Assembly: GCA_043813365.1 (NCBI GenBank) | Contig: JBDRLB010000030.1 | Span: 1 to 15,589 of the forward strand | From: Candidatus Micrarchaeota archaeon | Lineage (GTDB): Archaea; Micrarchaeota; Micrarchaeia; Norongarragalinales; SBBD01 | Length of the DNA stretch: 15,589 bases | Direction of reading: 5' to 3' | Shown: in pieces, positions 3,142 through 15,589 of the stretch | Layout: every line of letters begins with the position of its first letter | How positions within the stretch are numbered: the stretch's first letter is position 1 | Position numbers and translations under genes: made by a program | The notes under the pieces: generated by a model | The model's database searches: none | What the model was told of the DNA's origin: nothing | Seen by the model: the letters and a program-made list of their open reading frames with translations, nothing else

Positions 3142-5913
3142 TCAATCATCCTCCTCTGCTGCAGCAGCTTTGGGTTTGTAGAAATACTTGATGATCTCCT
3201 CAACAATGAAAACGGAGGAGCCTACGAGGAAAATCATCGCCCATTCAAGGGGGAGGAGGGGAACAGTATAGAATATTGCCTCCAAAATGCCGGTCTGCAC
3301 AATCAGGATTTGTGAAACAAACCCTATCAGCACTGCTGCAACAAGGAAGCGGTTCTTGAAAACGCCAACCTCGAGGATTGGCGCCTTGTGCGCATGCCAG
3401 CTCAGGGCAATGAAAAGCTGGAAGAATATTATGGTGCTGAATGCGAGCGTGCGCGCCTTCTCCAGCGCAAGTTCATGGTCAGGAATCCCCGAATTCAGCC
3501 CCCACCAGAACATCGCCAGGGTTCCTATGGTGATCAGCGCACCGATCATCCCCAAACGGACCATGTCGTCCTTCGGGATCACCGGCTCGTCCGGTTTCCT
3601 TGGGGGCCGGCACATGATGTCCTTTGCCTTTGTGTCAGCAGCGAGCGCAAGCGCGGGAAGCGCATCCGTAGCGAGATTCATCCATAAAATCTGTATCGGC
3701 AGCAGCGGATAATCCCAGCCGATGATTATCGCGAGAAGGATCACCAGCACTTCCCCTATGTTGCACGAGAGCAGGTATTTCACCGCCTTCATTATGTTGT
3801 CGAAAAGTATGCGCCCTTCCTCCACGGCTGCAACAATGGAGGCGAAGTTGTCATCCGTGATCACCATGTCCGCGCTTTCCTTTGCGACATCGGTGCCGGT
3901 AATGCCCATTGCAACGCCGATGTCCGATTTCTTTATTGCGGGTGCATCATTCACGCCGTCTCCTGTCATCGCAACTGACTCTCCCTTCCTCTGCAGCGTG
4001 CTTACTATCCGCAGCTTATGTTCGGGGGAAACGCGCGCGTAAACGGCGACTTCCGACGCGATTTTCTCATACTCCGAATCGGGAAGGTCCTCGAGCTGCC
4101 TTCCGGTAAGCACCTTGTCGGTTTTCTCATCGAACATCCCCAGCTCCTTGGCGATCACTTTCGCGGTCAGCTCATTGTCGCCGGTGATCATCACTACCCG
4201 GATGCCAGCCTGCTTGCAAAGGGCGATCGCATCCCTCACCTCCTTCCTCGGAGGGTCCATCATCGCCATCAATCCTACGAAAACGAGCTCCCTTTCAACA
4301 TCTCCGATCTTGAATTCCCGGTTTCCGCTTGTTTTCAGGTTGCGGTAGGCGAACCCCAGCACGCGCAGCCCCTCGGAGGCGAAATCAGCATTTTTCCCTT
4401 CAATGGTTTGGCGCATTGCAGCATCCAATTTCACCTGCTTCCCATCCTTCAGGTAAAAGCCGCATTTTTCAATAAGCATTTCCGGTGCGCCTTTGGTGTA
4501 GGCGATGACGCCCGCCTCGTCCTCATCGTAAATCACGGACATCATCTTCCTTTCCGAATCAAATGTGAGCTCCTCGACCTTTTTGCGCGATTTTTTCTCC
4601 AGCAAATAGTCCATTCCCGCCTTTTTGGAAACAACCAAAAGGCATGCTTCAGTAGGATCGCCAAGTATGCCCGTGTCCGTCAGGGAGGCGTTGTTGCATA
4701 AAACAGCCGAATGGAAAAGCGGGGAAAAATTGGCCTCCTTGAGGGGGCTTAGCAATTTCTTGCCTTTTTCATCGGAAAATTCGCCCTCGGCGGAATATCC
4801 CTGGCCGCTAACGGAATATTCCCTGCCATTGGTGAAAATTTTCCTCACAGTCATCTCGTTCCTCGTAAGCGTGCCTGTTTTATCGGAGCAGATCACAGTT
4901 GCGGAGCCGAGCCCTTCGGCTGCGGACAACCTGCGAATAATTGAATTCCGTTTGGCCATGCGCTGCACGCCTATTGCAAGCGCGATTGTGACAACAGCGG
5001 GAAGCCCCTCGGGAATGGCTGCAACTGCAAGCGCTACGGAAACAAGGAAGAGCTGGAGGACGTCATGGAACTCGAAGCCGTTCCCCATTATTTCCCGGAT
5101 GAAGCCGATTGCAAAAACAAGCACGGTCGCGGCAATTGCCATTTTTCCAAGCTGTTTCCCCAGCTGGTCCAACTTGTGCTGGAGCGGGGTCTCCTCCTCC
5201 CCGATGGATTGCACCAAGGTAGCAATTTTCCCGATTTCCGTATTACCTCCGGTGAAGCAAACTACCGCCCGCGCCTCGCCTTTCGTGACCAGCGTACTCA
5301 TGAAGAGCATATTTTGCCTGTCGTTGATCACGGCTTTCACATCCAATTTCAGCTTGAAAGATTTGCCAACGGGATTGCTTTCGCCGGTGAGGCTGGATTC
5401 ATCTGCCTCAAGGTTGTGCGATTCGATCAGCCGCGAATCAGCGGGCACCTTGTCGCCCTCATGCAGGATGATGATGTCCCCCGGGACAAGCTCGGAGGTG
5501 TTTATCTCCATTTCCTTCCCATTCCGGACAACGTTTGCCTTTGGGAGCACCAGCCTCCTCAAAGCCTCGATTGCCTGGTTCGCCCGGTACTGCTGGAAGA
5601 CGCCGATAATGGCGTTGATTACAACGATTGCGATGATTGCAATGGAATCGAGGTATTCGCCCTCGTTTGTCATGTAGGTGGTGATTGCGGAAATGATTGC
5701 GGCAGCAATTAGCAGCAAAATCACGAAGTCCTTGAATTCGCCGATGAACATTTCAAAAAGGGTTGCCTTCTTCCGGGCCTTGAGGGTATTGGGTCCGTAT
5801 TGCTTCAATCGTAACTCAGCTTCCTCCTTGGAAAGCCCATCCTTCCCCACCTTAAAGGAGGACAGCGCCTCCTCAGCTGATATGGAGTGATAACTAGCAC
5901 TGCTTTCGGGCAT
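3142..5913 (-). CDS. Cation-transporting P-type ATPase, type IIA (SERCA-like, likely Ca2+)
   Basis: LTGES, AIPEGLP, CSDKTGTLT, KGAPE, MITGDN, MTGDGVNDAPA, SCNIGE and LWMNLATD, with about 10 TM segments. Confidence 0.95.
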   Translation of the reverse strand: MPESSASYHSISAEEALSSFKVGKDGLSKEEAELRLKQYGPNTLKARKKATLFEMFIGEFKDFVILLLIAAAIISAITTYMTNEGEYLDSIAIIAIVVINAIIGVFQQYRANQAIEALRRLVLPKANVVRNGKEMEINTSELVPGDIIILHEGDKVPADSRLIESHNLEADESSLTGESNPVGKSFKLKLDVKAVINDRQNMLFMSTLVTKGEARAVVCFTGGNTEIGKIATLVQSIGEEETPLQHKLDQLGKQLGKMAIAATVLVFAIGFIREIMGNGFEFHDVLQLFLVSVALAVAAIPEGLPAVVTIALAIGVQRMAKRNSIIRRLSAAEGLGSATVICSDKTGTLTRNEMTVRKIFTNGREYSVSGQGYSAEGEFSDEKGKKLLSPLKEANFSPLFHSAVLCNNASLTDTGILGDPTEACLLVVSKKAGMDYLLEKKSRKKVEELTFDSERKMMSVIYDEDEAGVIAYTKGAPEMLIEKCGFYLKDGKQVKLDAAMRQTIEGKNADFASEGLRVLGFAYRNLKTSGNREFKIGDVERELVFVGLMAMMDPPRKEVRDAIALCKQAGIRVVMITGDNELTAKVIAKELGMFDEKTDKVLTGRQLEDLPDSEYEKIASEVAVYARVSPEHKLRIVSTLQRKGESVAMTGDGVNDAPAIKKSDIGVAMGITGTDVAKESADMVITDDNFASIVAAVEEGRILFDNIMKAVKYLLSCNIGEVLVILLAIIIGWDYPLLPIQILWMNLATDALPALALAADTKAKDIMCRPPRKPDEPVIPKDDMVRLGMIGALITIGTLAMFWWGLNSGIPDHELALEKARTLAFSTIIFFQLFIALSWHAHKAPILEVGVFKNRFLVAAVLIGFVSQILIVQTGILEAIFYTVPLLPLEWAMIFLVGSSVFIVEEIIKYFYKPKAAAAEEDD

Positions 5914-5959
5914 AATTAACCGAATAAGTTAAAATCGGGCGATTTTTATTTGTATTCTA

Positions 5960-6892
5960 TTAGTGTGCAACGGTTTTCGTGCCGATTTCCTTCATTGATT
6001 TCCAGAAAAAGAACGCAATAATGGCAATGGTGGCCACTGGTGAAAGCCAGTTCGGAATTTCAGCACCGAAAGCATCAAGCACCATGATGGTTCCGAGTAT
6101 GAGGATGGAATACATCGCACCGTTCTTGAGGTATTTGTATTTCTGCACGTTCTCGATGTTCCTTATTGTAAGCTCACGGACAACGAATGCGCCAATGCCG
6201 TTCCCGATGAGAATTAACGGGACAGCGAAGGTGAATGCGAATGCGCCCACTACTCCGTCAATTGAGAATGAAGCATCAATTACTTCGAGGTAAAGGATTT
6301 TGCTCCAGTCGCCCATGCCCCCTCCTTTTTCAAGCATCTCCTTCTCCTTCAGCTCAGCATTCTGCCGGAAACCATGCACTATGAAGAATGCGGTTGAACC
6401 TATGACTGCTGAAAGCGCCATCATGGGATCGCGCTGGAGGCACTCGTAAACGATGAATGTGAGAAGAATGGATACGACCGCATAGAACCATACTCCCTGC
6501 TTCGAGAAGAATTTCTCACCATGGAGGCCGAAATTCTTCGGTTCCATGAAGAGCCAGTGGAAGAAAATGAAAATCAGGAAGATGCCGCCACCTACAAGAA
6601 GAATGGGTGCCGTATGTTCAATTGCCTCCACAACCGACGGGTCTGAAGAAAATGTTGCGGTAAGCGCGCCCATCAAACCGATTGAGGGGTTGGAAACATA
6701 TACAATCAGGAGTGGCAAAACCCCCCTTAATATGAAAACAGCGAAAAGAAGCCCCCAGAAAAGGAACCATCTCCTCGCCCATGCGGACATTTTCCGCAAT
6801 ATCTCTGCATTGATGACGGCATTATCAAATGAGCTTACGGTTTCAAAAAGCACCAGACCGATGATTGTAAGTAATACGGCGAAAAGATCCAT
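5960..6892 (-). CDS. DUF475 / TerC-superfamily integral membrane protein
   Basis: SSFDNAVINA, LYLEVIDASFSIDGVVGAFA and YLKNGAMYSI motifs. Start at ATG 6892, 22-28 bp downstream of a TTTTAAA box (6914-6920). Confidence 0.88.
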   Translation of the reverse strand: MDLFAVLLTIIGLVLFETVSSFDNAVINAEILRKMSAWARRWFLFWGLLFAVFILRGVLPLLIVYVSNPSIGLMGALTATFSSDPSVVEAIEHTAPILLVGGGIFLIFIFFHWLFMEPKNFGLHGEKFFSKQGVWFYAVVSILLTFIVYECLQRDPMMALSAVIGSTAFFIVHGFRQNAELKEKEMLEKGGGMGDWSKILYLEVIDASFSIDGVVGAFAFTFAVPLILIGNGIGAFVVRELTIRNIENVQKYKYLKNGAMYSILILGTIMVLDAFGAEIPNWLSPVATIAIIAFFFWKSMKEIGTKTVAH

Positions 6893-6968
6893 GCAATTAA
6901 ATTGCAAATCGGGTTTAAAATAGGGTAATAAGGTGCAAGAATAGCATCAGGAATTTTGAACGGGCGGG

Positions 6969-7352
6969 TTACTTCCTGCTCATTTTCTTATAGAGCTTCC
7001 CGTTGCCGTCGTTCAGGAGTTTCTTCCTGCCGAAATAGCCTATCCTCTCCAACTGCGCGTACTTCTTCCTTTCCTCCACGTCCGCCTTCATCTTCAGCTG
7101 CCTCTCCTTCCTTTTTGCAACTGCTTCCTCAACATCCTCCGGGCCTAAAGAGTACACTAAGTAGTTGGAGAAAGTCAGCTGGGCGCTGCCAACGCGTGCC
7201 TTGACGCCCTTCAGCTCTTCGGTGGATACGGTTTTCAAAACAACGTTAGTATTGCATTCACCGCATACCTTATGCTTCATGCTAGCGTCCCAAACTTGTT
7301 TAGAGTTGCAGGAACCGCATTTCACAATGAAGACCTTAATGGATTCGTTCAT
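6969..7352 (-). CDS. Hypothetical Zn-ribbon protein with basic/charged helical tail
   Basis: CGSC-x14-CGEC followed by a K/R/E-rich helix. ATG 7352 is preceded by SD-like AAGGTGGG. GTG 7361 is the alternative start. Confidence 0.65.
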   Translation of the reverse strand: MNESIKVFIVKCGSCNSKQVWDASMKHKVCGECNTNVVLKTVSTEELKGVKARVGSAQLTFSNYLVYSLGPEDVEEAVAKRKERQLKMKADVEERKKYAQLERIGYFGRKKLLNDGNGKLYKKMSRK

Positions 7353-7445
7353 ACAGCCCACCTTGCATAAGCATTGCTAATTAAAGCCAATTTTACCACT
7401 GAGGAGCAGTATATTTATGGCATATCCAATATATATACTTTCCGA

Positions 7446-7484
7446 ATTTGCCCCCATAGTGATATAATGAACATGGGGTAAAAT
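7446..7484. repeat. Imperfect inverted repeat in the divergent intergenic region
   Basis: ATTTGCCCCCAT (7446-7457) and ATGGGGTAAAAT (7473-7484) are 10/12 complementary, with a 15-bp spacer. Confidence 0.5.
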
Positions 7485-7635
7485 CAGCAAATAAATGGCT
7501 CATCAATAGTTTGGAGACCCCCGGCTAATAATTGTTCGGTTTAACTTAGGCGTGCAATAGGAAAGCCCTCCATTCTGCACTTTTTCAAACAATTTATTAA
7601 TCTTTTCGCGTTCAAATGAGGAGAGGGGAGATGAC

Positions 7636-8262
7636 ATGTACAAGAAAATATTCTACGGATTGATTGTGGCGATCGTTTTGTTCGGGCTGATTTTCATCGG
7701 CTCATCATTTTTCGGGGGAGGGACGCCAGCGGCTGCAAATGCAACGGCAACACCTGGGCCTTCATTCCAGGTTACGGTAACAAAAGTGGCAGGTGGGAAC
7801 ATGGCTGTTGAGAAAGGGGATACCGTTTCAGTGTGGTATTTGGGAACATTGGAGGATGGGTCCGTATTTGACACAAACATCATTGATGAGGCAAAGAAGG
7901 CGGGCACCTACGAAGCTTCAAGGCCGTATGAGCCCCTTACATTCCAGGTTGGGATTGGGCAGATGATCAAGGGATTTGATGATGGGGTAGTTGGAATGAA
8001 GGAGAATGAGACCAAAACCATTAAAATTGAAGCCAAGGATGCATACGGCACGCCCCAGCCGGAAAATATAGTTGATTTCCCAATAGATGATTTGCGGCAG
8101 AACGGCATTGATCCAGCTGTGGGGCTTTCTTTGAGCAACGGGATGAGCCAAGGAATCATCACAAAGGTCACGAACTCAACCGTGACCGTTGATTTCAACC
8201 ATTTCCTTGCAGGGAAGAACCTGATATTCAAGGTCACGATACAGAAATTGCAGAAAGGCTGA
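7636..8262 (+). CDS. slyD: FKBP-type peptidyl-prolyl isomerase (SlyD-like, with IF insert) carrying an N-terminal signal/TM anchor
   Basis: MYKK plus a hydrophobic helix and Ala/Thr/Pro linker, then KGDTVSVWYLGTLEDGSVFDTN, PLTFQVGIGQMIKGFD, AYG and VDFNHFLAGKNLIFKV. A purine-rich SD lies upstream. Confidence 0.9.
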   Translation: MYKKIFYGLIVAIVLFGLIFIGSSFFGGGTPAAANATATPGPSFQVTVTKVAGGNMAVEKGDTVSVWYLGTLEDGSVFDTNIIDEAKKAGTYEASRPYEPLTFQVGIGQMIKGFDDGVVGMKENETKTIKIEAKDAYGTPQPENIVDFPIDDLRQNGIDPAVGLSLSNGMSQGIITKVTNSTVTVDFNHFLAGKNLIFKVTIQKLQKG

Positions 8263-8276
8263 TTTTCCTTTTTTTT
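8263..8276 (+). terminator. Oligo-T archaeal terminator after the FKBP gene
   Basis: TTTTCCTTTTTTTT immediately follows the TGA, between convergent genes. Confidence 0.6.
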
Positions 8277-8322
8277 GAAGCGCAGCTAGGGATGAAATTC
8301 AAAGCCCGCCCTTATTGATTCC

Positions 8323-8604
8323 TTAAACAGGAGGCGAATACTGCTGGTAGCCCCAGCCGCGGTTCTCGCGTTCCTTCTGCGCAACCAACTGCTTTACCTT
8401 CTTGTCGTAAATCCGGAGATGCTTGCCGCAGGAAGCGCAGTAGCACATCTTCTTTGTGATCTTCGAGAAATACTGATCGTCATGCATGTCCTTGCGCTCA
8501 ACCGGGTTCATGAGGATTGGCTTGTCTATGCAAACCGCCTTGTCAGACCGTACCCTTCTTCCGCACTTTGAGCAAATAATTGATGTTTCCTTTCCCCTAC
8601 CCAT
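8323..8604 (-). CDS. rps26e: Small ribosomal subunit protein eS26 (S26e)
   Basis: GRGKETSIICSKCGRRVRSDKAV...YCASCGKH matches the eS26 pattern C-x2-C-x6-DKA ... YC-x-SC-x2-H. ATG 8604 is preceded by SD-like GGGGCTGA. Confidence 0.85.
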   Translation of the reverse strand: MGRGKETSIICSKCGRRVRSDKAVCIDKPILMNPVERKDMHDDQYFSKITKKMCYCASCGKHLRIYDKKVKQLVAQKERENRGWGYQQYSPPV

Positions 8605-8609
8605 GTGAA

Positions 8610-8852
8610 TCAGCCCCTTTTCCACGGCCAGAATTTCCAGACGAGCGCCACAACTGCACCGAATATGATGCCATGGTACAACGCAAAATTGTAATCCGGA
8701 ATTTCCCCCAGAAGATAAGTGTCATAGAATGTCCTTGCGAGGAACGTCGCAACCATGCCGGCAAGCCCCAAACGCATTGCCTCATCCCATCTAACATCCC
8801 TCTCTGCCGGAACGGCTTTTTCCTTCCTCCCGGCACGGCTTTTCCTCTTCAT
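8610..8852 (-). CDS. Small 2-TM membrane protein, probably co-transcribed with eS26
   Basis: Basic N-terminus and two hydrophobic helices. TTTTATAAA lies about 30 bp upstream, and the stop is 5 bp before the eS26 start. Alternative start at 8867. Confidence 0.6.
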   Translation of the reverse strand: MKRKSRAGRKEKAVPAERDVRWDEAMRLGLAGMVATFLARTFYDTYLLGEIPDYNFALYHGIIFGAVVALVWKFWPWKRG

Positions 8853-8880
8853 TGCAATCCCTTTCATTACGGAGTTCAGA

Positions 8881-8923: not shown

Positions 8924-11900
8924 CTATTCCCTGGTGCCGCCTATAAAGGCCGAAACTTCTGAAACGATCTGCGAATAGAACAGCGAAGCAGCTTCCCAGA
9001 TATTGGCTACATCAAGCAAACCAGTCATATTCACATAGGTTTCATTCCCTGTAATGTAATTGAACCCCCAGGTCTGGTTGCCCAAAACAGCTGCTTCATC
9101 AAATGAGCTCAGCTCCTGCTCCCCGTTCTGGTAAACGATGTAAACCTGCTGGTCTTCACTTTTTTCCGAGGAGGGTATGGCGCTATTGATCCCTTCCAGA
9201 ATCGCCTGCCTTGCAATTGTTTCATTTGTAACCGGAGATTCCAATATTATTGTGATGTTCATGGGTTCGCTGATGTTAACAATCGCAAAGCCGGAAAGGT
9301 TTGAGCCGTTTGCATAAATTGTGTGGGGTGTAAAGCAGTGGAAATTGGAGCCGCTTCCCTGGCATCCTTCAGCGTAAGTGTCCAGATCCGTCTGGTTGAA
9401 CTCCTCTACTGCAAAGCTGATGCTCCCATCTGCATCCGTTACTCCTGAATGCTTCAAATTGCCCTCAAAATCGTAAATTTCCACGGTAGCATTTTCAATT
9501 GATTGGTTGCTTTCATCCTGAACGCGGATGTTTGCCGTGTAGAACACGTGGATGGGGTCGCCCTGGTAGGCGGCGTTGTACCTGCTCTTATTGTAGGTAA
9601 CATCATAGAGATAGGCGGGGGAAGGCGTGTAGTAGGTTACAAAATCATAGCCCATGATGTTCGAAAGATTGCAGTTGATGATTTCCGTATTGTTTGCAGA
9701 AAGGCTGTAGATCCCATGCCCCCTTGTTGATGTGCTGGCATTGACATTCCTGATGTTCATTCCTGAAATGGTGAACTTTTCGGTTGTTTGGGGGCCCGAC
9801 CTGTCAAGCATTAGAGCTGCCATATCCAGCCCATTTGCCCAGATGCCTTCCAAAGTGAAGTTCTTCCATGAGTTGTTCGCTGCCCCATGGTTGATGTACC
9901 CTATCCCGTAGGGGTTGCCGGTGCTGTAATTGTAATTGTGGAAGTAGGCGTTCTCAATTGTGATGTTTATTGGGTTGGAGAGCCAGAACGCCCTTACTCC
10001 GCCGTCCCCATGGCACGTGAAATCTCTAATTATCTGGTTTTCAGAGGTTGTGAATAAGCAGAAGCCGTGCAGAGTGTTGTTGATTATTTCACTATGGTCA
10101 TTGCCTACCCTGATCTGGCTGTCACCGTTGAAAACATTGTTGTTGATTTGGAGGTTGTCCGTGTTATCCACCCTTATTGCGCCTGCATCAACAATGGAAT
10201 CGTTGAATGCCAAATTGGAGCCATGCTGGGAGCTGTCCTCTGAAAGAATCGTGTAATAGTAAATAGATTTTGCATAGAAGTTGCTCCAGGTGTACAAATC
10301 GGACACGTTGTTAAGCAATCTGTAAGGAGCCATCCTCAATGCTCCGGAATGCTTTGCGGAGTTGTTTGTGAAATTGTTATTGTAGGAATAGGTGAACTGG
10401 GAGCCGTTTACGTAGAAAATCCCGTAATCCGAAATTGGTGTTTCGCCTCCGAAATTGTCCGCGTAATTGTCCTTGATCAAATTATCATGGATGAAGGAGT
10501 AATTGCTCTTTTGAAGGTTGAACATCTTGAAAAATGCGTTGTTCGGGCTCTGCTTGATGCCGTTCCGTATTGTATTGTTGAAGAATTGGAGGTAGGTAAC
10601 GTTCTTTCCCTTCCAGACGTTAATCGTTCCTTCGAGGATGCAGTTCTTTATTGTGATGTTGTTTGTGTTTTCTGAAAAGAACAGGTAATCTTCATTTAGT
10701 TTTGGCGCCTGAATTTGGAAGCCGTTGCAATCTAAAATTATGTTGTTCGAGTTGAAATTGAAGCAGCTGTTGTTGTTAGCTGATAAGATTAAGCTTGATG
10801 ATAGGTCTACCATATTGCTGCAGTCAACTTCCCCCCATGGGTTCACGGTTACTGTTTGCATATCCGATGCCCCCCATTCGCTGTTGAAGTAGCAAAGCAT
10901 CCTGTTTGTGTAAGTGGCGTTCTTCTCCCCAACAATTGTGCGGCTTGTGGAGCATAAAACAACCGCTTCGTCTTCCGGGTTTGTGCCGCTCTGGATGTAT
11001 TGCCCTAATCCCTGCGGGCTTGTTGGGATGTATTGCCAAGTGCCGTTTGAGAATTGCCAGTAGATGCTCCCCATTGTGGGGCATAAGCCTGATGCGGAGA
11101 TCATTCCGGTCATGGTGAAAGTTTCATTGATCGTGATGTTCGGATCTGAAGCCGGTGCGCTCATTATGCAGCTCCATGTGCACGGCGGAGGCCTGTCAAT
11201 CCATTTGAAAGCTGATGTTAGAGTCTGGTTTACTGCCAATGGGCCAAAATCAATTAGGAGCGTTATTGGCGCGTTATATTGGAATTGGGTGCTTTTCACG
11301 AGCAAATTGTAATTTTCATCTCCTTCCCATGAAAGCTGCAGGTATTCGTTTGTAACTGAATCCCTGATTGAGAAACTAGGTATTTGCAGGTTTGTGAAAT
11401 TCATCTCCAATGTCTGGTTCAGCAGGTAATAACTCCCATCCACATCAAGGTAATCATTTTCCTGCGTGTTGCTTATTCGAATGTCCTTTACCTTCCATGC
11501 GAACCCCACGTCAACGGGAATTGCCTGGGTTCCAACGTTTTCTATCGAAGGTGTAACCGTAAGATTTTCATCCTGCGAACCTAGATGGTAATTTACGCCT
11601 ATTTTGATGCCATAACTGTTGCCTCCCCTTGTGAAATTGAATATTTTGAAACCGTTAATGTTTACATAACTGGAGTTATCGGTTTCAAACGACCAGCTGA
11701 AAGGCAATGAATCGGTGCATTTGTACTGCCACTCATCCAGCTTTACCAGCCCGCAGAAAACATTATGCGACCAATACTCATCGTAATGGTTGGTGAGCTG
11801 GATGCCGGAAGAGCTGTTGAAGTAATAATCGTCATTTTCATTCCAGATGTGCCAAACTGCGCCGGAATCCAGCTCTTCAAAACCGATTGCCGGTGAATCC

Positions 11901-11980
11901 GGATGGTTGGGGCTTGCTTGCACTAGGAGGCCTGCGATGAGCAGGCTTCCGAAGACCAGCACCAAGGATGTTTTTTTCAT
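8924..11980 (-). CDS. Large secreted/surface protein with right-handed parallel beta-helix repeats and Ig-like domains
   Basis: Signal peptide MKKTSLVLVFGSLLIAGLLVQA. Beta-helix motifs (NNIILDCNGFQI, NNITIKNCIL, FFNNTIRN) and a carboxypeptidase-regulatory-like Ig (IRVQDESNQSIENATVEIYD...GVTDADG). Many N-x-S/T sequons. ATGA overlap with the upstream stop. Confidence 0.85.
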   Translation of the reverse strand: MKKTSLVLVFGSLLIAGLLVQASPNHPDSPAIGFEELDSGAVWHIWNENDDYYFNSSSGIQLTNHYDEYWSHNVFCGLVKLDEWQYKCTDSLPFSWSFETDNSSYVNINGFKIFNFTRGGNSYGIKIGVNYHLGSQDENLTVTPSIENVGTQAIPVDVGFAWKVKDIRISNTQENDYLDVDGSYYLLNQTLEMNFTNLQIPSFSIRDSVTNEYLQLSWEGDENYNLLVKSTQFQYNAPITLLIDFGPLAVNQTLTSAFKWIDRPPPCTWSCIMSAPASDPNITINETFTMTGMISASGLCPTMGSIYWQFSNGTWQYIPTSPQGLGQYIQSGTNPEDEAVVLCSTSRTIVGEKNATYTNRMLCYFNSEWGASDMQTVTVNPWGEVDCSNMVDLSSSLILSANNNSCFNFNSNNIILDCNGFQIQAPKLNEDYLFFSENTNNITIKNCILEGTINVWKGKNVTYLQFFNNTIRNGIKQSPNNAFFKMFNLQKSNYSFIHDNLIKDNYADNFGGETPISDYGIFYVNGSQFTYSYNNNFTNNSAKHSGALRMAPYRLLNNVSDLYTWSNFYAKSIYYYTILSEDSSQHGSNLAFNDSIVDAGAIRVDNTDNLQINNNVFNGDSQIRVGNDHSEIINNTLHGFCLFTTSENQIIRDFTCHGDGGVRAFWLSNPINITIENAYFHNYNYSTGNPYGIGYINHGAANNSWKNFTLEGIWANGLDMAALMLDRSGPQTTEKFTISGMNIRNVNASTSTRGHGIYSLSANNTEIINCNLSNIMGYDFVTYYTPSPAYLYDVTYNKSRYNAAYQGDPIHVFYTANIRVQDESNQSIENATVEIYDFEGNLKHSGVTDADGSISFAVEEFNQTDLDTYAEGCQGSGSNFHCFTPHTIYANGSNLSGFAIVNISEPMNITIILESPVTNETIARQAILEGINSAIPSSEKSEDQQVYIVYQNGEQELSSFDEAAVLGNQTWGFNYITGNETYVNMTGLLDVANIWEAASLFYSQIVSEVSAFIGGTRE

Positions 11981-12324
11981 TTAATCACTTCCAATATTAA
12001 GTAAAGTATACCGAATAATGAAATCGCCAGAAGAAAGATTAGCAATATTTTTTTTATAAGCAGCCTTAATTTCACTCTATACTTGGTTAATTCTTCATCA
12101 GATCCATCAATTTCATTGTAAAGAAATCTATACATCCTCAATGGATTCATAAATATAAGTTTACCATAAAGATATTCATATTTCTTCTTATTTTTTTTTA
12201 TTAAATATAGTTTAAAACGAACATTTGTAAGTAAAAATAAAACAATTGTAATAAACCCGATAAGCACTAGAATTGCAATTAGTATGAATAAGCCGGCAAC
12301 AAGCCACACTTCAATGTTTTCCAT
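11977..12324 (-). CDS. Putative immunity protein, two TM helices, UspB-like layout
   Basis: Starts 14 bp after the Rhs stop with a GGGGA SD. Very low GC (8/60 G+C in 12181-12240). Layout is TM, loop (KKYEYLYG...NPLRMYRFLY...DEELTKYR), TM. Confidence 0.7.
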   Translation of the reverse strand: MENIEVWLVAGLFILIAILVLIGFITIVLFLLTNVRFKLYLIKKNKKKYEYLYGKLIFMNPLRMYRFLYNEIDGSDEELTKYRVKLRLLIKKILLIFLLAISLFGILYLILEVIK

Positions 12325-12338
12325 AATATCCCCTATTG

Positions 12339-15269
12339 TTAATTATTATCTGAGTAAAAATCATAATAAAACGCGTATGGACTTCGACTCCTAACAGTTG
12401 AATCAGACGTTGAATAAGCTACTTGACTTATTTCAGGGTAATTATTTAGGTTAAGGGATGTAAAAGGTTGTGAATTGTAAGGTTGGCCAGAATTTTGAAC
12501 ATAGCTTCCACTAGGATTTGTTTCTATATTTAAATAAGCATTTTTTCTTCCAAGTTCCTGCGGATTGGTTTTTTGCTTATTTATCGCAACGAATGTATCG
12601 GTAATTACAGTTTCAGACTTTCCTTGAACTGCACTTATACCAAAACCAGCGCCTATGCTATAACCTACTTCTTCGTTTCCATTTTTATCAGTTGAGATTT
12701 GGTTACTAACCCCAAATATATCTTTCGCATTTACTCCCATAACATTTGAAAATCCTTCAATATCATCAAGCGATTGAGCGTCTTTTAGTAAAGATGCATC
12801 AAGATTTCCTGAAATTTCACCACCGAGCATGAAACCATCAGTTTTTGATATATATTTTCCTATTTCTATGGACCCTTTATTCCCAATAACCAGAACATAA
12901 CCTGCGGAATATGAATTAAAACCTCCCAACGAAACGGTTTTTGAGAGAAAGCCTTGAATCGGGTTGATGAATACGCCTAATCCATAAGTTAAACTTAGTC
13001 CAACCTTTATACCAAAATTTCCTTTTAAATCAATATATACATACGGATTATTCAGTACATAGCTGTACCTGTTCAGCATCTGCGGATTATACAAATCCGG
13101 TATCATCGAATCCGCCTGCGTGAATTTCCCTATTTTCGGGTTATAGTATCTGGCGCCATAATACATCAATCCGGTTTCGGAATCCTTTTCCTTTCCAGTG
13201 TAAAGGAACCTGCTTTTCGCATCGTATAGCGGCTCACCGAAGGGTTTGTAATTCGTATCCTCCACAACAGCACCGGATTCATTTGTAACGAGCGTAGTCG
13301 AACCCAGATGGTCGGGATGATAGAAATACTTTTTCCCGTCGGGGTCTTTGCGGGCGATCATTTGGGAATCGGCGAAATAATAAATCGTGTCGAAGGTTCC
13401 GGTTGCATTAATCACCCGTAGGAAATTCTGGTTGATGTAGAGGATGGTTTCGTTCTTGAGATGATCTGTTTTGCGGATGCGGTTGCCGTCGGGGTCGTAT
13501 AAATATTCGGAAATTATGAAACCGGTTGAATTGCCTGTTCTGATTGCGCTTAATTGGTTGAAGGAATTGTACTCATAGTAGTTGTTTGCATCTTGAATTA
13601 GGTTGCCGTTGGCATCGTAAAGGAATGTTTGCGTAAGGTTGGAGGGAGCTGGTGCGGAGGTTTGCCCTATTGCAAGTGATTGCTGGGATAGGAAGGTTTG
13701 ATTTGATGCGCGAGCGGTTACTTTGTATTCGGTTGAATTGGAGTAATTGTAGCTGATGAATATGAGAATTGATTCCTGCGGCTTGAGGGAGATGTTGAGG
13801 GTTGAGTTGATTTGCGAAACTCCCGTAAAGAAGGTGAAATTGACGTTTGTGATGTTCGCGTTGCCGTTGTTCTTGATTTTGAAGCGGTAGGTTTTGAGCG
13901 TTGAGTTGGTGTTTACGAGTTGAAGATCTTTGAGTTCGAGGAGAGGACCGGTTTGGGAAATTGATTTGGGGGAGTGGACGGGAGAGTTCTGGTAATTGTA
14001 GGTACTGATGGTGTTGGCGTTGTTTTCCTGAATTGAAAGGATGTTGCCGATGGAGGAGTAGGTGTAATTTAGAAGGTAGTTTTCCTTTTGAGGGGAGTTA
14101 TCGGTTCGGGAGGCGAATGTGAGGCGGCTAAGTTTGTCGTAGCCCATCGTCTGGATTATTGAGTTGTAGGCATCGTTGATTTGGAGGATGTTGCTGGTGT
14201 TGTCGTAGAGGTATTGGAGGTCTTGGAGGGAGGAGGTTTGTATTCTGGTGAGGCGGGAGGTTGGGAAGTCGTAGGTGAAGGAGGTGTTGAGGGAGTTGGC
14301 GTAATTGCGGAGAATGGGCTTGTTGAAGGCGTCGTATTGGGCGAGAGTGAGGATGCCTTCGATGGAGGAGAGCTGGTTTTGGGAGCTGTAGGTGTAGTAG
14401 ATGGTTTCGGAGTTGGGGAGAATTATTGCTGTAATCCGGTCTAAAGAGTCGTAGGTGTAGTTGGTTCTGGAGACGTTATTTTCAATTGATTTGAGCTCAG
14501 AGGTTTTGCGGTAGCGGGAGTCGTAGGAGAATGCCTCTGCGAAAGAGGCTGAAAGTATCCTTGAAAGGGTGCCGTTGAGCTGCTCATCGTAGAGGTAGGT
14601 GAATGCGAGCGGGGAGGCGGATTTGTGGGTTAGGCGGTTTAGGGGGTCGTATTGCAAAGCGGTTGTGATGGAGCGGTTGTCCTTTTGGGAGATGAGGTTG
14701 CTTGCTGCATCGTAAGAGTAGTTCCAGATTCCTAAATCGGGGTCGGAGAGGGAGGTTTTGCGTCCGAGAGTGTCGTAGGTGAATTTGAACTTGTTGTTTT
14801 CGTTGTCGGTGATGTTTAGGAGCTGGGAGGCGGCATCGTAGGAGTATTTGGTGACGTAGGGGGTGGGAGAGTTGAATTCGTGAATCTCAATGATTTGGCC
14901 GTAGGCGTCTTGAATCTGGAGGAGCTGATTGCCGTTTTCATCCGTTATTGTTGTGTTCCATTTGGAGTAGTTGAAGGTTTTTGTGGTGTTGTCGGGGTTG
15001 GTGGTTTTGATTATGCGGGAGAGGGGATCGTAGGAGATGTTGGAGAAGGGGATGGTGGAGTTGGGAGTTGTGTAGTTTTCGGATTTTTCAACACGAGTAT
15101 GACGAAACGGAGAGTTGTGGATCCATTCATAGGGTTCGCCATCATCGTTTGGGTCAGGAATGTTGGCAATAGCATCATTGAATTGGGATTGAAAAAGAGC
15201 TTGCAGTCTTGAATCAGAGGTGAATCTAGCATCGCATTCAGAAAATGCTAGTTTACCTCGTGTTATCAT
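12339..15269 (-). CDS. rhs: RHS/YD-repeat protein (N-terminally truncated core + RHS-associated core + variable C-terminal tip); polymorphic toxin candidate
   Basis: YD repeats (YDTLGRKTSLSDPDLGIWNYSYD, YDANGNL, YDPDGNRIRK) and core motifs YFYHPDHLGSTT, YKPFGE, YTGKEKDSETGLMYYGARYYNPKIGKFTQAD and LNRYSYVLNNP. The AT-rich ~225-aa tip spans 12339-13016. Confidence 0.93.
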   Translation of the reverse strand: MITRGKLAFSECDARFTSDSRLQALFQSQFNDAIANIPDPNDDGEPYEWIHNSPFRHTRVEKSENYTTPNSTIPFSNISYDPLSRIIKTTNPDNTTKTFNYSKWNTTITDENGNQLLQIQDAYGQIIEIHEFNSPTPYVTKYSYDAASQLLNITDNENNKFKFTYDTLGRKTSLSDPDLGIWNYSYDAASNLISQKDNRSITTALQYDPLNRLTHKSASPLAFTYLYDEQLNGTLSRILSASFAEAFSYDSRYRKTSELKSIENNVSRTNYTYDSLDRITAIILPNSETIYYTYSSQNQLSSIEGILTLAQYDAFNKPILRNYANSLNTSFTYDFPTSRLTRIQTSSLQDLQYLYDNTSNILQINDAYNSIIQTMGYDKLSRLTFASRTDNSPQKENYLLNYTYSSIGNILSIQENNANTISTYNYQNSPVHSPKSISQTGPLLELKDLQLVNTNSTLKTYRFKIKNNGNANITNVNFTFFTGVSQINSTLNISLKPQESILIFISYNYSNSTEYKVTARASNQTFLSQQSLAIGQTSAPAPSNLTQTFLYDANGNLIQDANNYYEYNSFNQLSAIRTGNSTGFIISEYLYDPDGNRIRKTDHLKNETILYINQNFLRVINATGTFDTIYYFADSQMIARKDPDGKKYFYHPDHLGSTTLVTNESGAVVEDTNYKPFGEPLYDAKSRFLYTGKEKDSETGLMYYGARYYNPKIGKFTQADSMIPDLYNPQMLNRYSYVLNNPYVYIDLKGNFGIKVGLSLTYGLGVFINPIQGFLSKTVSLGGFNSYSAGYVLVIGNKGSIEIGKYISKTDGFMLGGEISGNLDASLLKDAQSLDDIEGFSNVMGVNAKDIFGVSNQISTDKNGNEEVGYSIGAGFGISAVQGKSETVITDTFVAINKQKTNPQELGRKNAYLNIETNPSGSYVQNSGQPYNSQPFTSLNLNNYPEISQVAYSTSDSTVRSRSPYAFYYDFYSDNN

Positions 15270-15589
15270 TTTTTCACTTTTTCCAAAACATCTAGTGAAG
15301 CTTTATCATTCGGCTTATATCTCAATACTTTTCTCGCAATTTTGACTGCCTCTTCATCGGAGATTAGTTTATCGGGTAAAATATTGAAAAAAAGCAGCCA
15401 TTGTAAATTATCAACATTTGTTGGTTCGAGTTCAACGGATCTGCGTGCATGGAAAAGAGCTAAATTGTATGCGTTTGGTAGGTGATTTATTCCATTAGAT
15501 AAAATGACCGATGCTATTCTGTGGTAGTACGCTGTTTCCTTATCACAAATTAAAAACCAAATAAAGCTGTAAGGGGCTATGCTTTCCTT
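15266..15589 (-). CDS. Partial (5'-truncated by window edge) helical/TPR-like protein; possible immunity protein of an upstream toxin
   Basis: Not in the ORF track. My translation is open for 107 codons: KESIAPYSFIWFLICDKETAYYHRIASVILSNGINHLPNAYNLALFHARRSVELEPTNVDNLQWLLFFNILPDKLISDEEAVKIARKVLRYKPNDKASLDVLEKVKK*. It has TPR-like 'ALFHARRSVELEP' and 'ARKVLRYKP' segments, and its TGA overlaps the Rhs ATG. Confidence 0.7.
   Translation of the reverse strand, partial: KESIAPYSFIWFLICDKETAYYHRIASVILSNGINHLPNAYNLALFHARRSVELEPTNVDNLQWLLFFNILPDKLISDEEAVKIARKVLRYKPNDKASLDVLEKVKK

Follow-up and report, generated by a model that had tools for sequence, protein, structure and literature searches.

The DNA analysed here (the window; 15,589 nt) is an entire contig, C30, of the draft genome of a Candidatus Micrarchaeota archaeon (G000; 1,335,696 bases in 78 contigs, 88.6% complete). 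Four co-oriented open reading frames (ORFs), all on the minus strand, occupy positions 8924–15589. We consider it likely that this region is the downstream end of a Micrarchaeota Rhs polymorphic-toxin island, holding an orphan-type Rhs cassette with its own toxin tip and a membrane immunity protein. A first-pass annotation had proposed an Rhs toxin–immunity locus forming the tail of a multi-cassette system, and its four genes were recovered at the same coordinates in the ORF list and by reading the sequence. Along the minus strand these are the 3' part of a gene for a small helical protein resembling tetratricopeptide repeats (15266–15589; 107 codons, open at the 5' end where the contig end cuts it), an Rhs ORF of 976 aa (12339–15269), defined by its translation and by profile matches, a gene for a 115-aa protein with two transmembrane (TM) helices and a Lys-rich loop in between (11977–12324), and a gene for a 1018-aa surface protein rich in sequons (N-x-S/T), the last gene of the island (8924–11980), which was recognised by its ORF, its sequons, and a relative in another genome. 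Its position and hydropathy and a complex model predict that the 115-aa protein is the cognate immunity protein of the Rhs tip. For comparison, genomes G001–G005 are relatives from the same genus, and G007 and G008 are further relatives.

At the junction between the upstream gene fragment and the Rhs ORF the sequence reads aaaaATGAtaaca (15269–15266), the Rhs ATG overlapping the upstream stop codon (ATGA). The 115-aa gene is joined to the 1018-aa gene by ttaaATGAaaaa (11980–11977), where the ATG of the surface protein overlaps the stop codon of the putative immunity gene. The Rhs stop codon TAA (12339–12341) and the next ATG (12324) are separated by 14 nt. Both ATGA overlaps and the 14-bp gap had been described in the annotation and were found as described. 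The GC content is 0.471 in the Rhs core and 0.457 in the 1018-aa gene, and it is lower in the upstream fragment (0.352), the tip (0.348), and the 115-aa gene (0.264); compared with the core and with the genome (0.494) the tip/immunity cassette looks foreign. Given the base composition, the chance of an open frame of this length is P = 1.4e-8 for the tip and P = 1.8e-5 for the 115-aa gene.

Sequence comparison identifies the 976-aa protein as a genuine Rhs protein. It matches the RHS_repeat family PF05593 (79.6 bits, cut-off 22; E 1.8e-22), the YD_repeat_2x model TIGR01643 (E 4.6e-20), and, with residues 674–750, positions 1–75 of the 76 positions of the Rhs_assc_core model TIGR03696 (68.5 bits against a cut-off of 32.5; E 5.4e-19). 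The protein starts with a unique leader of 49 codons (15122–15269), which is not homologous to Rhs proteins. This is followed by the Rhs/YD-repeat shell (residues 50–751; 13017–15121), which ends in the Rhs-associated core domain, and by a variable C-terminal tip, the predicted toxin (residues 752–976; 12342–13016); homology to an orphan Rhs protein of G002 (see below) ends at residue 753. The core domain closes with the predicted autoproteolysis motif NNPYVYIDLKGN, in which, compared with the usual DPxGL form, Pro and Leu are replaced and Asp and Gly retained. The shell contains a sequon-rich immunoglobulin-like (Ig-like) insertion (residues ~446–534; 13668–13934) with weak Pfam matches to CARDB (0.0046) and DUF7507 (0.0022), both under the cut-off. 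The Ig-like segment also matches a 2056-aa surface protein of G007. When the whole protein was compared with the PDB, solved Rhs, teneurin-like, and YenC2 chains matched the shell and the core only. A homologue search returned 1,635 proteins at E <= 0.001 from 7,999 scored candidates; many of the best homologues carry TcdB_toxin_midN, FG-GAP, and SpvB, and only two of the best 20 have source names, Woesearchaeota and Pacearchaeota.

Residues 50–782 of the Rhs protein align to residues 1092–1823 of the 2041-aa main Rhs protein of G002 with 71% identity, and residues 69–763 align to residues 856–1546 of the homologue P0005. About 1,090 N-terminal residues of the full-length G002 protein, comprising the signal peptide, SpvB, FG-GAP, and TcdB_toxin_midN, are absent from the 976-aa protein. 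When the ORF was searched for an N-terminal trafficking part, neither a signal peptide nor a hydrophobic segment (Kyte–Doolittle) was found, and residues 1–49 matched nothing. Since homology covers only the second half of the relatives and the leader is unmatched and not hydrophobic, the protein is an N-terminally truncated module. Because the N-terminal trafficking part is absent, the module was classed as an orphan and not as a full toxin.

The structure of a more complete array can be seen in G002, the genome with the nearest copy of the Rhs gene. Here an orthologous island of 13.5 kb, with its genes in one direction, lies on a 263-kb Micrarchaeota contig. The first gene encodes the 2041-aa main Rhs protein, with a signal-peptide-like start, SpvB (6.3e-12), FG-GAP_3, TcdB_toxin_midN (7.8e-20), and a Tox-REase-9 tip (29.6 bits; cut-off 27.3). 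It is followed by two small low-GC ORFs with weak TsiV and Imm11 matches under the cut-off, and by a 535-aa orphan Rhs protein with an Ntox35 tip (35.2 bits; cut-off 23.6). The Ntox35 orphan is directly followed by a helical ORF of 154 aa, which shares 65% identity with the upstream fragment of the window. The fifth gene is an Rhs fragment, 76% identical to residues 443–707 of the window Rhs protein, which ends after '...DSESGL' inside the core; about 60 nt further on follows the gene for a secreted, sequon-rich 808-aa protein related to the 1018-aa protein. The ORFs after the G002 tips have a GC content of 0.28–0.32, and both orphan modules begin at the Ig-like domain (query residues 416–443). 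The order of immunity homologue, Rhs module, and surface protein is common to both genomes, and the corresponding place in G002 is without the tip and the 115-aa cassette. Homology between the window Rhs protein and the 535-aa orphan stops at residue 753, which is the border of core and tip. The annotation had put forward a comparison of relatives for swapping of tip and immunity genes; this break, the different G002 tips, and the gene order of the orthologous island support the multi-cassette tail. The G002 array was probably enlarged when a single truncated module was duplicated and its tip later exchanged.

G005 possesses a main Rhs protein similar to that of G002 (SpvB 1.1e-7, FG-GAP_3, TcdB_toxin_midN 3.6e-21), which is split across two contigs inside the conserved core and has two small low-GC ORFs after it. 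The upstream fragment of the window was found in 2 of the 40 relatives searched, G000 included, and matched no Pfam or NCBIfam family; it is predicted to be the immunity gene of a preceding Ntox35-type Rhs module that would lie unseen and unassembled upstream. A search of the G000 assembly for a second Rhs or TcB-like gene, with the window proteins and seven homologues as queries, matched only contig C30, and neither TcdB_toxin_midN nor an Ntox35 tip was found in the assembly. As the assembly holds no main rhs gene and the contig ends at 15589, we infer the head of the array from one relative.

Some further features of these two relatives were observed. The N-terminal FG-GAP/EF-hand-like part of the G002 main rhs gene contains tandem DNA repeats (contig C5, 122413–123512) in a register of ~183 nt that are 72–76% identical. 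Beside the G002 island five ORFs of 276, 350, 125, 137, and 109 aa (contig C5, 126104–129448) have no counterpart in the G000 assembly and may be a second accessory or mobile segment. In G005, contig C7 encodes three 'mini-Rhs' proteins of 463–508 aa (5831–7264, 7347–8738, and 16170–17696, all on the minus strand). Each consists of a membrane or signal segment at the N-terminus, a linker rich in Pro and Thr, the Rhs-associated core only, 38–43% identical to query residues 605–760, and a distinct tip; by this layout they are polymorphic toxins without a shell.

The tip of the window Rhs protein matched no Pfam family. With phmmer no credible relative was found among 1.84 billion representatives: the sole match (E 5.6e-5) was judged spurious, being a 225-aa tandem-repeat protein that aligned only to the Tyr/Asp-rich tail. 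An ESM Atlas search gave no lead (best score 0.78, recognition under the usual mark). Likeness to known pore-forming tips was not found either, as judged from the PDB, Pfam, and the same representatives. Gly makes up 12% of the tip and 20% of its first 75 residues, which have small-xxx-small runs; the tip is devoid of His, Cys, and Trp, and residues 76–225 are polar. The 115-aa protein shows Kyte–Doolittle peaks of 3.39 in its N-terminal third and of 3.04 at residues 83–115, with the Lys-rich loop between them, and agrees, also in its GC content, with the low-GC protein with two TM segments described earlier. It had no significant match in 39 relatives (best E 0.0018 and 0.0078), and in a collection of 5.8 billion clusters it retrieved itself alone among 62 candidates. 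The two proteins were modelled as a complex. The median ipSAE was 0.76 (runs 0.77, 0.76, and 0.76) and the best of three controls reached 0.00; the mark applied to this score is reached by 51 of 78 solved complexes and by 2 of 108 mismatched pairs. The runs share at least 96% of the contacts, and the predicted local distance difference test (pLDDT) value of the partner is at least 79. In the modelled interface tip residues 3–145 contact both TM helices of the 115-aa protein. The model supports binding of the tip to the 115-aa protein.

The last gene of the island encodes a protein whose residues 1–25 are hydrophobic (Kyte–Doolittle value 2.09) and, as judged from hydropathy, signal-peptide-like. 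The 1018-aa protein is 29% identical to the 808-aa protein of G002 over residues 383–1017 and 50% identical over the last 119 residues. Its conserved C-terminal domain of ~140 aa (8927–9358) has matches of 42–58% identity in G002, G003, G004, G007, and G008, that is in 5 of the 19 relatives searched, and is common to secreted proteins of differing size in this archaeal family. In an alignment of seven rows 16 of the 17 invariant columns fall into this domain. Against the 5.8 billion clusters the domain found itself and one 653-aa protein (7e-9) among 290 candidates, and an ESM Atlas search gave no usable match. The annotation had called the protein a beta-helix protein. From repeat motifs and a weak NosD-type match it is probably beta-helical: an ad hoc beta-helix repeat motif occurs 8 times (1.4 ± 1.2 in shuffled sequences), blastp gives a match of 30% identity over residues 405–524 (E 5.9e-6), and hhalign aligns the protein to a NosD protein (probability 23%, E 8.8e-4, 51 columns). 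On the other side, Pfam searched up to E 10 yielded neither Beta_helix nor NosD, only weak Ig-like matches at residues 814–859, including residues 819–857. AlphaFold2 modelled the protein from the seven-row alignment with a pLDDT of 33.4, only the C-terminal domain reaching 55–75, so that the label could not be verified by the model.

The Rhs core (residues 1–751) contains 28 sequons compared with 15.1 ± 3.5 in shuffled sequences (z 3.7), which bears out the claim that it is dense in N-x-S/T. The tip contains none (3.7 ± 1.6 expected), and the 1018-aa protein contains 41 (19.3 expected; z 5.9). The main Rhs protein of G002 has 74 sequons (34.3 expected; z 7.6), and that of G005 is not enriched (z 0.7). 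For 120 listed Rhs homologues the median density is 1.5 sequons per 100 aa; most of the closest have z values of 3–16, and the seven bacterium-labelled homologues range from −0.3 to 1.7. P0015, an Rhs protein labelled as Woesearchaeota, contains no sequon in its 1186 aa (z −4), although the entries next to it in the match list are rich in them; sequon avoidance or a bacterial contig under a wrong label may be the explanation. An STT3/AglB homologue is present in the G000 genome, and full-length Rhs relatives begin with signal-peptide-like stretches. Sec export and glycosylation, as suggested by the annotation, are thus supported indirectly by the relatives' starts, the sequons, and STT3/AglB; the window Rhs ORF itself is without a signal peptide. 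The pattern would fit an exported, glycosylated shell with an unglycosylated cargo, and suggests how an archaeon may adapt the Rhs cocoon to its own surface chemistry.

Taken as an orphan cassette, the locus could work in the following way. The 976-aa gene, N-terminally truncated and probably displaced, retains ~700 shell residues, the complete variable tip, and the core domain, which is predicted to be autoproteolytic. Missing from it are the signal peptide, SpvB, beta-propeller, and first shell half borne by its full-length, presumably Sec-exported relatives, which resemble TcB–TcC fusions; as these trafficking parts are absent, the 976-aa protein alone is probably not exported. The cassette would supply immunity through the 115-aa membrane protein and would act as a spare tip, which recombination across the shared core could move onto a main rhs gene. 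Such recombination may be rare, since the G002 orphans are only 78–86% identical to the main gene at the DNA level. The tip would attack the membrane of the target cell, forming pores in it or depolarising it; within the membrane the immunity protein would block the tip with its two TM helices. Membrane action is proposed because of the two-TM immunity protein, the Gly-rich tip start with its small-xxx-small runs, the absence of His, Cys, and Trp, and the precedent of Tse5; we give it somewhat less than an even chance. The gene for the 1018-aa surface protein is the terminal gene and moved along with the island.

Several observations weigh against this interpretation or parts of it. The core motif is IDLKGN instead of the DPxGL form. 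No main rhs, SpvB, or TcdB_toxin_midN is present in the 88.6%-complete assembly. The tip alone was modelled by AlphaFold2 with a mean pLDDT of 29.7, and as no homologue of the tip was found no activity can be assigned; its hydrophobicity is modest (Kyte–Doolittle maximum 1.19). The controls of the complex model are not stated as membrane proteins, and TM helices may attract confident unspecific packing. The full-length tips of G002 and G005 have a Gly/Ala-rich, hydrophobic start followed by a soluble C-terminal domain, a Tox-REase-9 nuclease in G002, and the Gly-rich start of the window tip may be a mere translocation segment. The main alternative to a membrane-acting tip is a soluble enzymatic toxin active inside the target cell, with the Gly-rich first 75 residues used for membrane crossing and the 115-aa protein blocking entry. 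The polar residues 76–225 would suit such a toxin; we nevertheless regard it as rather unlikely, as His, Cys, and Trp are missing from the tip, which matches no family, the immunity protein sits in the membrane, and the modelled interface consists of the TM helices and tip residues up to 145. The Rhs ORF is, furthermore, intact over 2.9 kb and ATGA-coupled, which fits an expressed protein equally well as a silent spare. It could then be an active, separately translated TcC-like subunit that joins a TcB-like partner to complete the cocoon, as in ABC toxins. With a core of ~750 aa and a tip of ~225 aa the protein resembles TcC in size and layout, and Yersinia entomophaga reportedly packages C components from distinct loci (PMC11067744). 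Against such a subunit, which seems very unlikely to us, stand the missing signal peptide, full-length relatives built for single-chain Sec export, the absence of a TcB-like gene from the G000 assembly, and the G002 counterpart, which is cut at both ends to a frame of 276 codons, like the decay of a spare copy.

With the orphan cassette preferred, the role of the 1018-aa protein and the integrity of the locus have to be considered. The protein could be a working partner of the Rhs protein in docking or target binding, or in a TcA-like role. Its ATG overlaps the immunity gene, the orthologous G002 island likewise ends in the gene for a related protein, and the gene has travelled with the array: the G002 island, surface gene included, sits between a gene for a metallo-beta-lactamase-fold protein and a NosD-like gene, which are adjacent in G000 (contig C26), G001, G003, G004, and G005, five of the six same-genus genomes. 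As these flanks adjoin each other in five genomes and the island lies beside eS26 in G000, the island was relocated as a unit that includes the surface gene. Shared relocation is linkage and not proof of function. The same C-terminal domain occurs in G003, G004, G007, and G008 with no Rhs gene on the same contig, the gene after the G005 main Rhs cassette is unrelated, and the two linked proteins are only 29% identical, all of which makes a partner role unlikely. The linkage of surface gene and rhs, which the annotation had proposed to compare among relatives, is seen in G000 and G002 at different chromosomal sites, and only these two have a gene of this family adjoining an Rhs gene; other family members stand elsewhere without Rhs. 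Alternatively, archaeal genes could have been joined to contaminating bacterial DNA, or the locus could be a chimera of the assembly. The contig GC (0.467) is below that of the genome, and FKBP is followed by eS26 in G000 (8262–8323) and by aRF1 in G002, G003, and G004, eS26 being located on other contigs in G002–G005. The same island, however, is embedded with 65–76% identity in the 263-kb contig of G002, the Rhs query matches all 9 other family members, and the sequon enrichment is of archaeal type. Bacterial contamination was rejected on account of the G002 island, the 9 of 9 family relatives, and the RHS_repeat matches in 6 of 7, and a chimera of any kind is extremely improbable. The most far-reaching reading would make the relocating island a three-part, TcA-independent, contact-dependent device of a DPANN episymbiont against rivals or its host, composed of a Sec-exported, N-glycosylated TcB–TcC-fusion cocoon, swappable tips, and a dedicated surface protein, with a newly arisen pore tip neutralised in the membrane by the two-helix immunity protein; this is speculative, and we think it quite unlikely.

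The locus shares properties with several known systems. In enterobacteria orphan rhs-CT/rhsI modules lie downstream of main rhs genes. Like these, the window module is a truncated rhs gene that keeps core sequence and is combined with a tip and an immunity gene of its own; it would likewise lie downstream of another cassette, and homology breaks exactly at the border of core and tip; a comparable shared junction is a 196-nt stretch at the 5' junction of both G002 orphans (contig C5, 114317–114512 and 116610–116802), which is 89% identical. In contrast to the enterobacterial modules, the core retained in the window is long (~700 aa), the ORF starts at a separate ATG, which is coupled to the predicted immunity gene before it, and the G002 orphans diverge from their main gene, as given above. 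The TcdB/TcaC class is described in a survey as having a signal peptide, SpvB, an integrin-like beta-propeller, RHS repeats, and a variable tip (PMC3482391, Zhang et al. 2012). The full-length relatives in G002 and G005 share this layout as well as the toxin/immunity cassettes. In the same survey classical RHS polymorphic toxins with cassettes are reported for Methanosarcina acetivorans, and the archaea listed are only Euryarchaeota (PMC3482391); TcdB_toxin_midN and RHS_repeat both matched our M. acetivorans control genome. Different from the class as described there are the Micrarchaeota (DPANN) lineage and the absence of the whole trafficking part from the window module, and the window tip and its immunity protein belong to no described family. 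The BC cocoon of the Tc (ABC) toxin YenB/YenC2 (PDB 4igl) has an Rhs shell and core, YenC2 matching query residues 660–747, and the full-length relatives share SpvB and TcdB_toxin_midN with it. Here, however, B and C are fused in the relatives, and the likely targets would be microbes and not animals. The TcA translocator (PF18276) was found in none of five genomes, a search that was likewise silent in all 14 known control genomes. In the Tse5/Tsi5 system of Pseudomonas aeruginosa the Rhs protein encapsulates its pore-forming tip (PMC10684867). As a working model the window module would resemble it in having an Rhs shell with a small non-enzymatic, membrane-acting tip and a cognate immunity gene. 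The tips show no sequence similarity, Tse5 matching the shell only (query residues 140–340), and Tse5 is delivered by a type VI secretion system, which is not expected for the window module.

When relatives were searched with the Rhs protein, 10 of 40 matched, G000 included; every one of the 9 further family members did so, and the 30 genomes from other families of the order gave no match. RHS_repeat occurs in 10 of 301 genomes sampled across the phylum; apart from G000 these comprise 6 of the 7 family members sampled and 3 of the 293 genomes from outside the family. The kind of system is known, as TcdB/TcaC-class Rhs arrays; the lineage and the cassette are new. In the literature collection searched no report of Rhs arrays in DPANN was found; a 2019 review of archaeal polymorphic toxins may bear on the subject. 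Polymorphic Rhs toxins are called rare in archaea in the reference survey, with only some methanogens and haloarchaea named (PMC3482391). Bacteria use these toxins as a main weapon in conflicts between cells, and this Micrarchaeota family shows the full bacterial logic: a main gene, orphan modules displaced from it, and tip/immunity cassettes of low GC content all occur. These are concrete genes for competition or host manipulation in organisms that grow attached to other cells. The tip/immunity pair, with no relatives and a strongly supported complex model, is a compact candidate for a new membrane-acting toxin family.

The remaining part of the contig carries archaeal housekeeping genes, namely Sua5, Ham1, P-type ATPase, TerC, FKBP, eS26, and a Csl4/Rrp4-like ORF. 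The eS26 profile scored 27.8 bits (cut-off 27), and the Csl4/Rrp4-like ORF remained under its cut-off. Synteny of the csl4-to-FKBP block extends to G002, G003, and G004, in agreement with the DPANN origin that the first-pass annotation had thought probable. The housekeeping part of the contig has a GC content (0.491) close to that of the genome. Extra ORFs lie between FKBP and aRF1 in G004 and G003. The island adjoins eS26 in G000; the same place is taken in G002, G004, and G005 by a ~350-aa gene whose product has a weak peptidase look. Either the gene order around the island is rearranged in G000, or the contig join needs scrutiny. The other end of the island was sought by synteny: aRF1 is found on G000 contig C19 behind ordinary genes, and no join was obtained. 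No tRNA gene is present in the window. Directly upstream of eS26 an 85-aa ORF (8610–8867, minus strand) was noticed, which has a 49%-identical counterpart in the same position in G005 and appears to be a small gene conserved as a partner of eS26.

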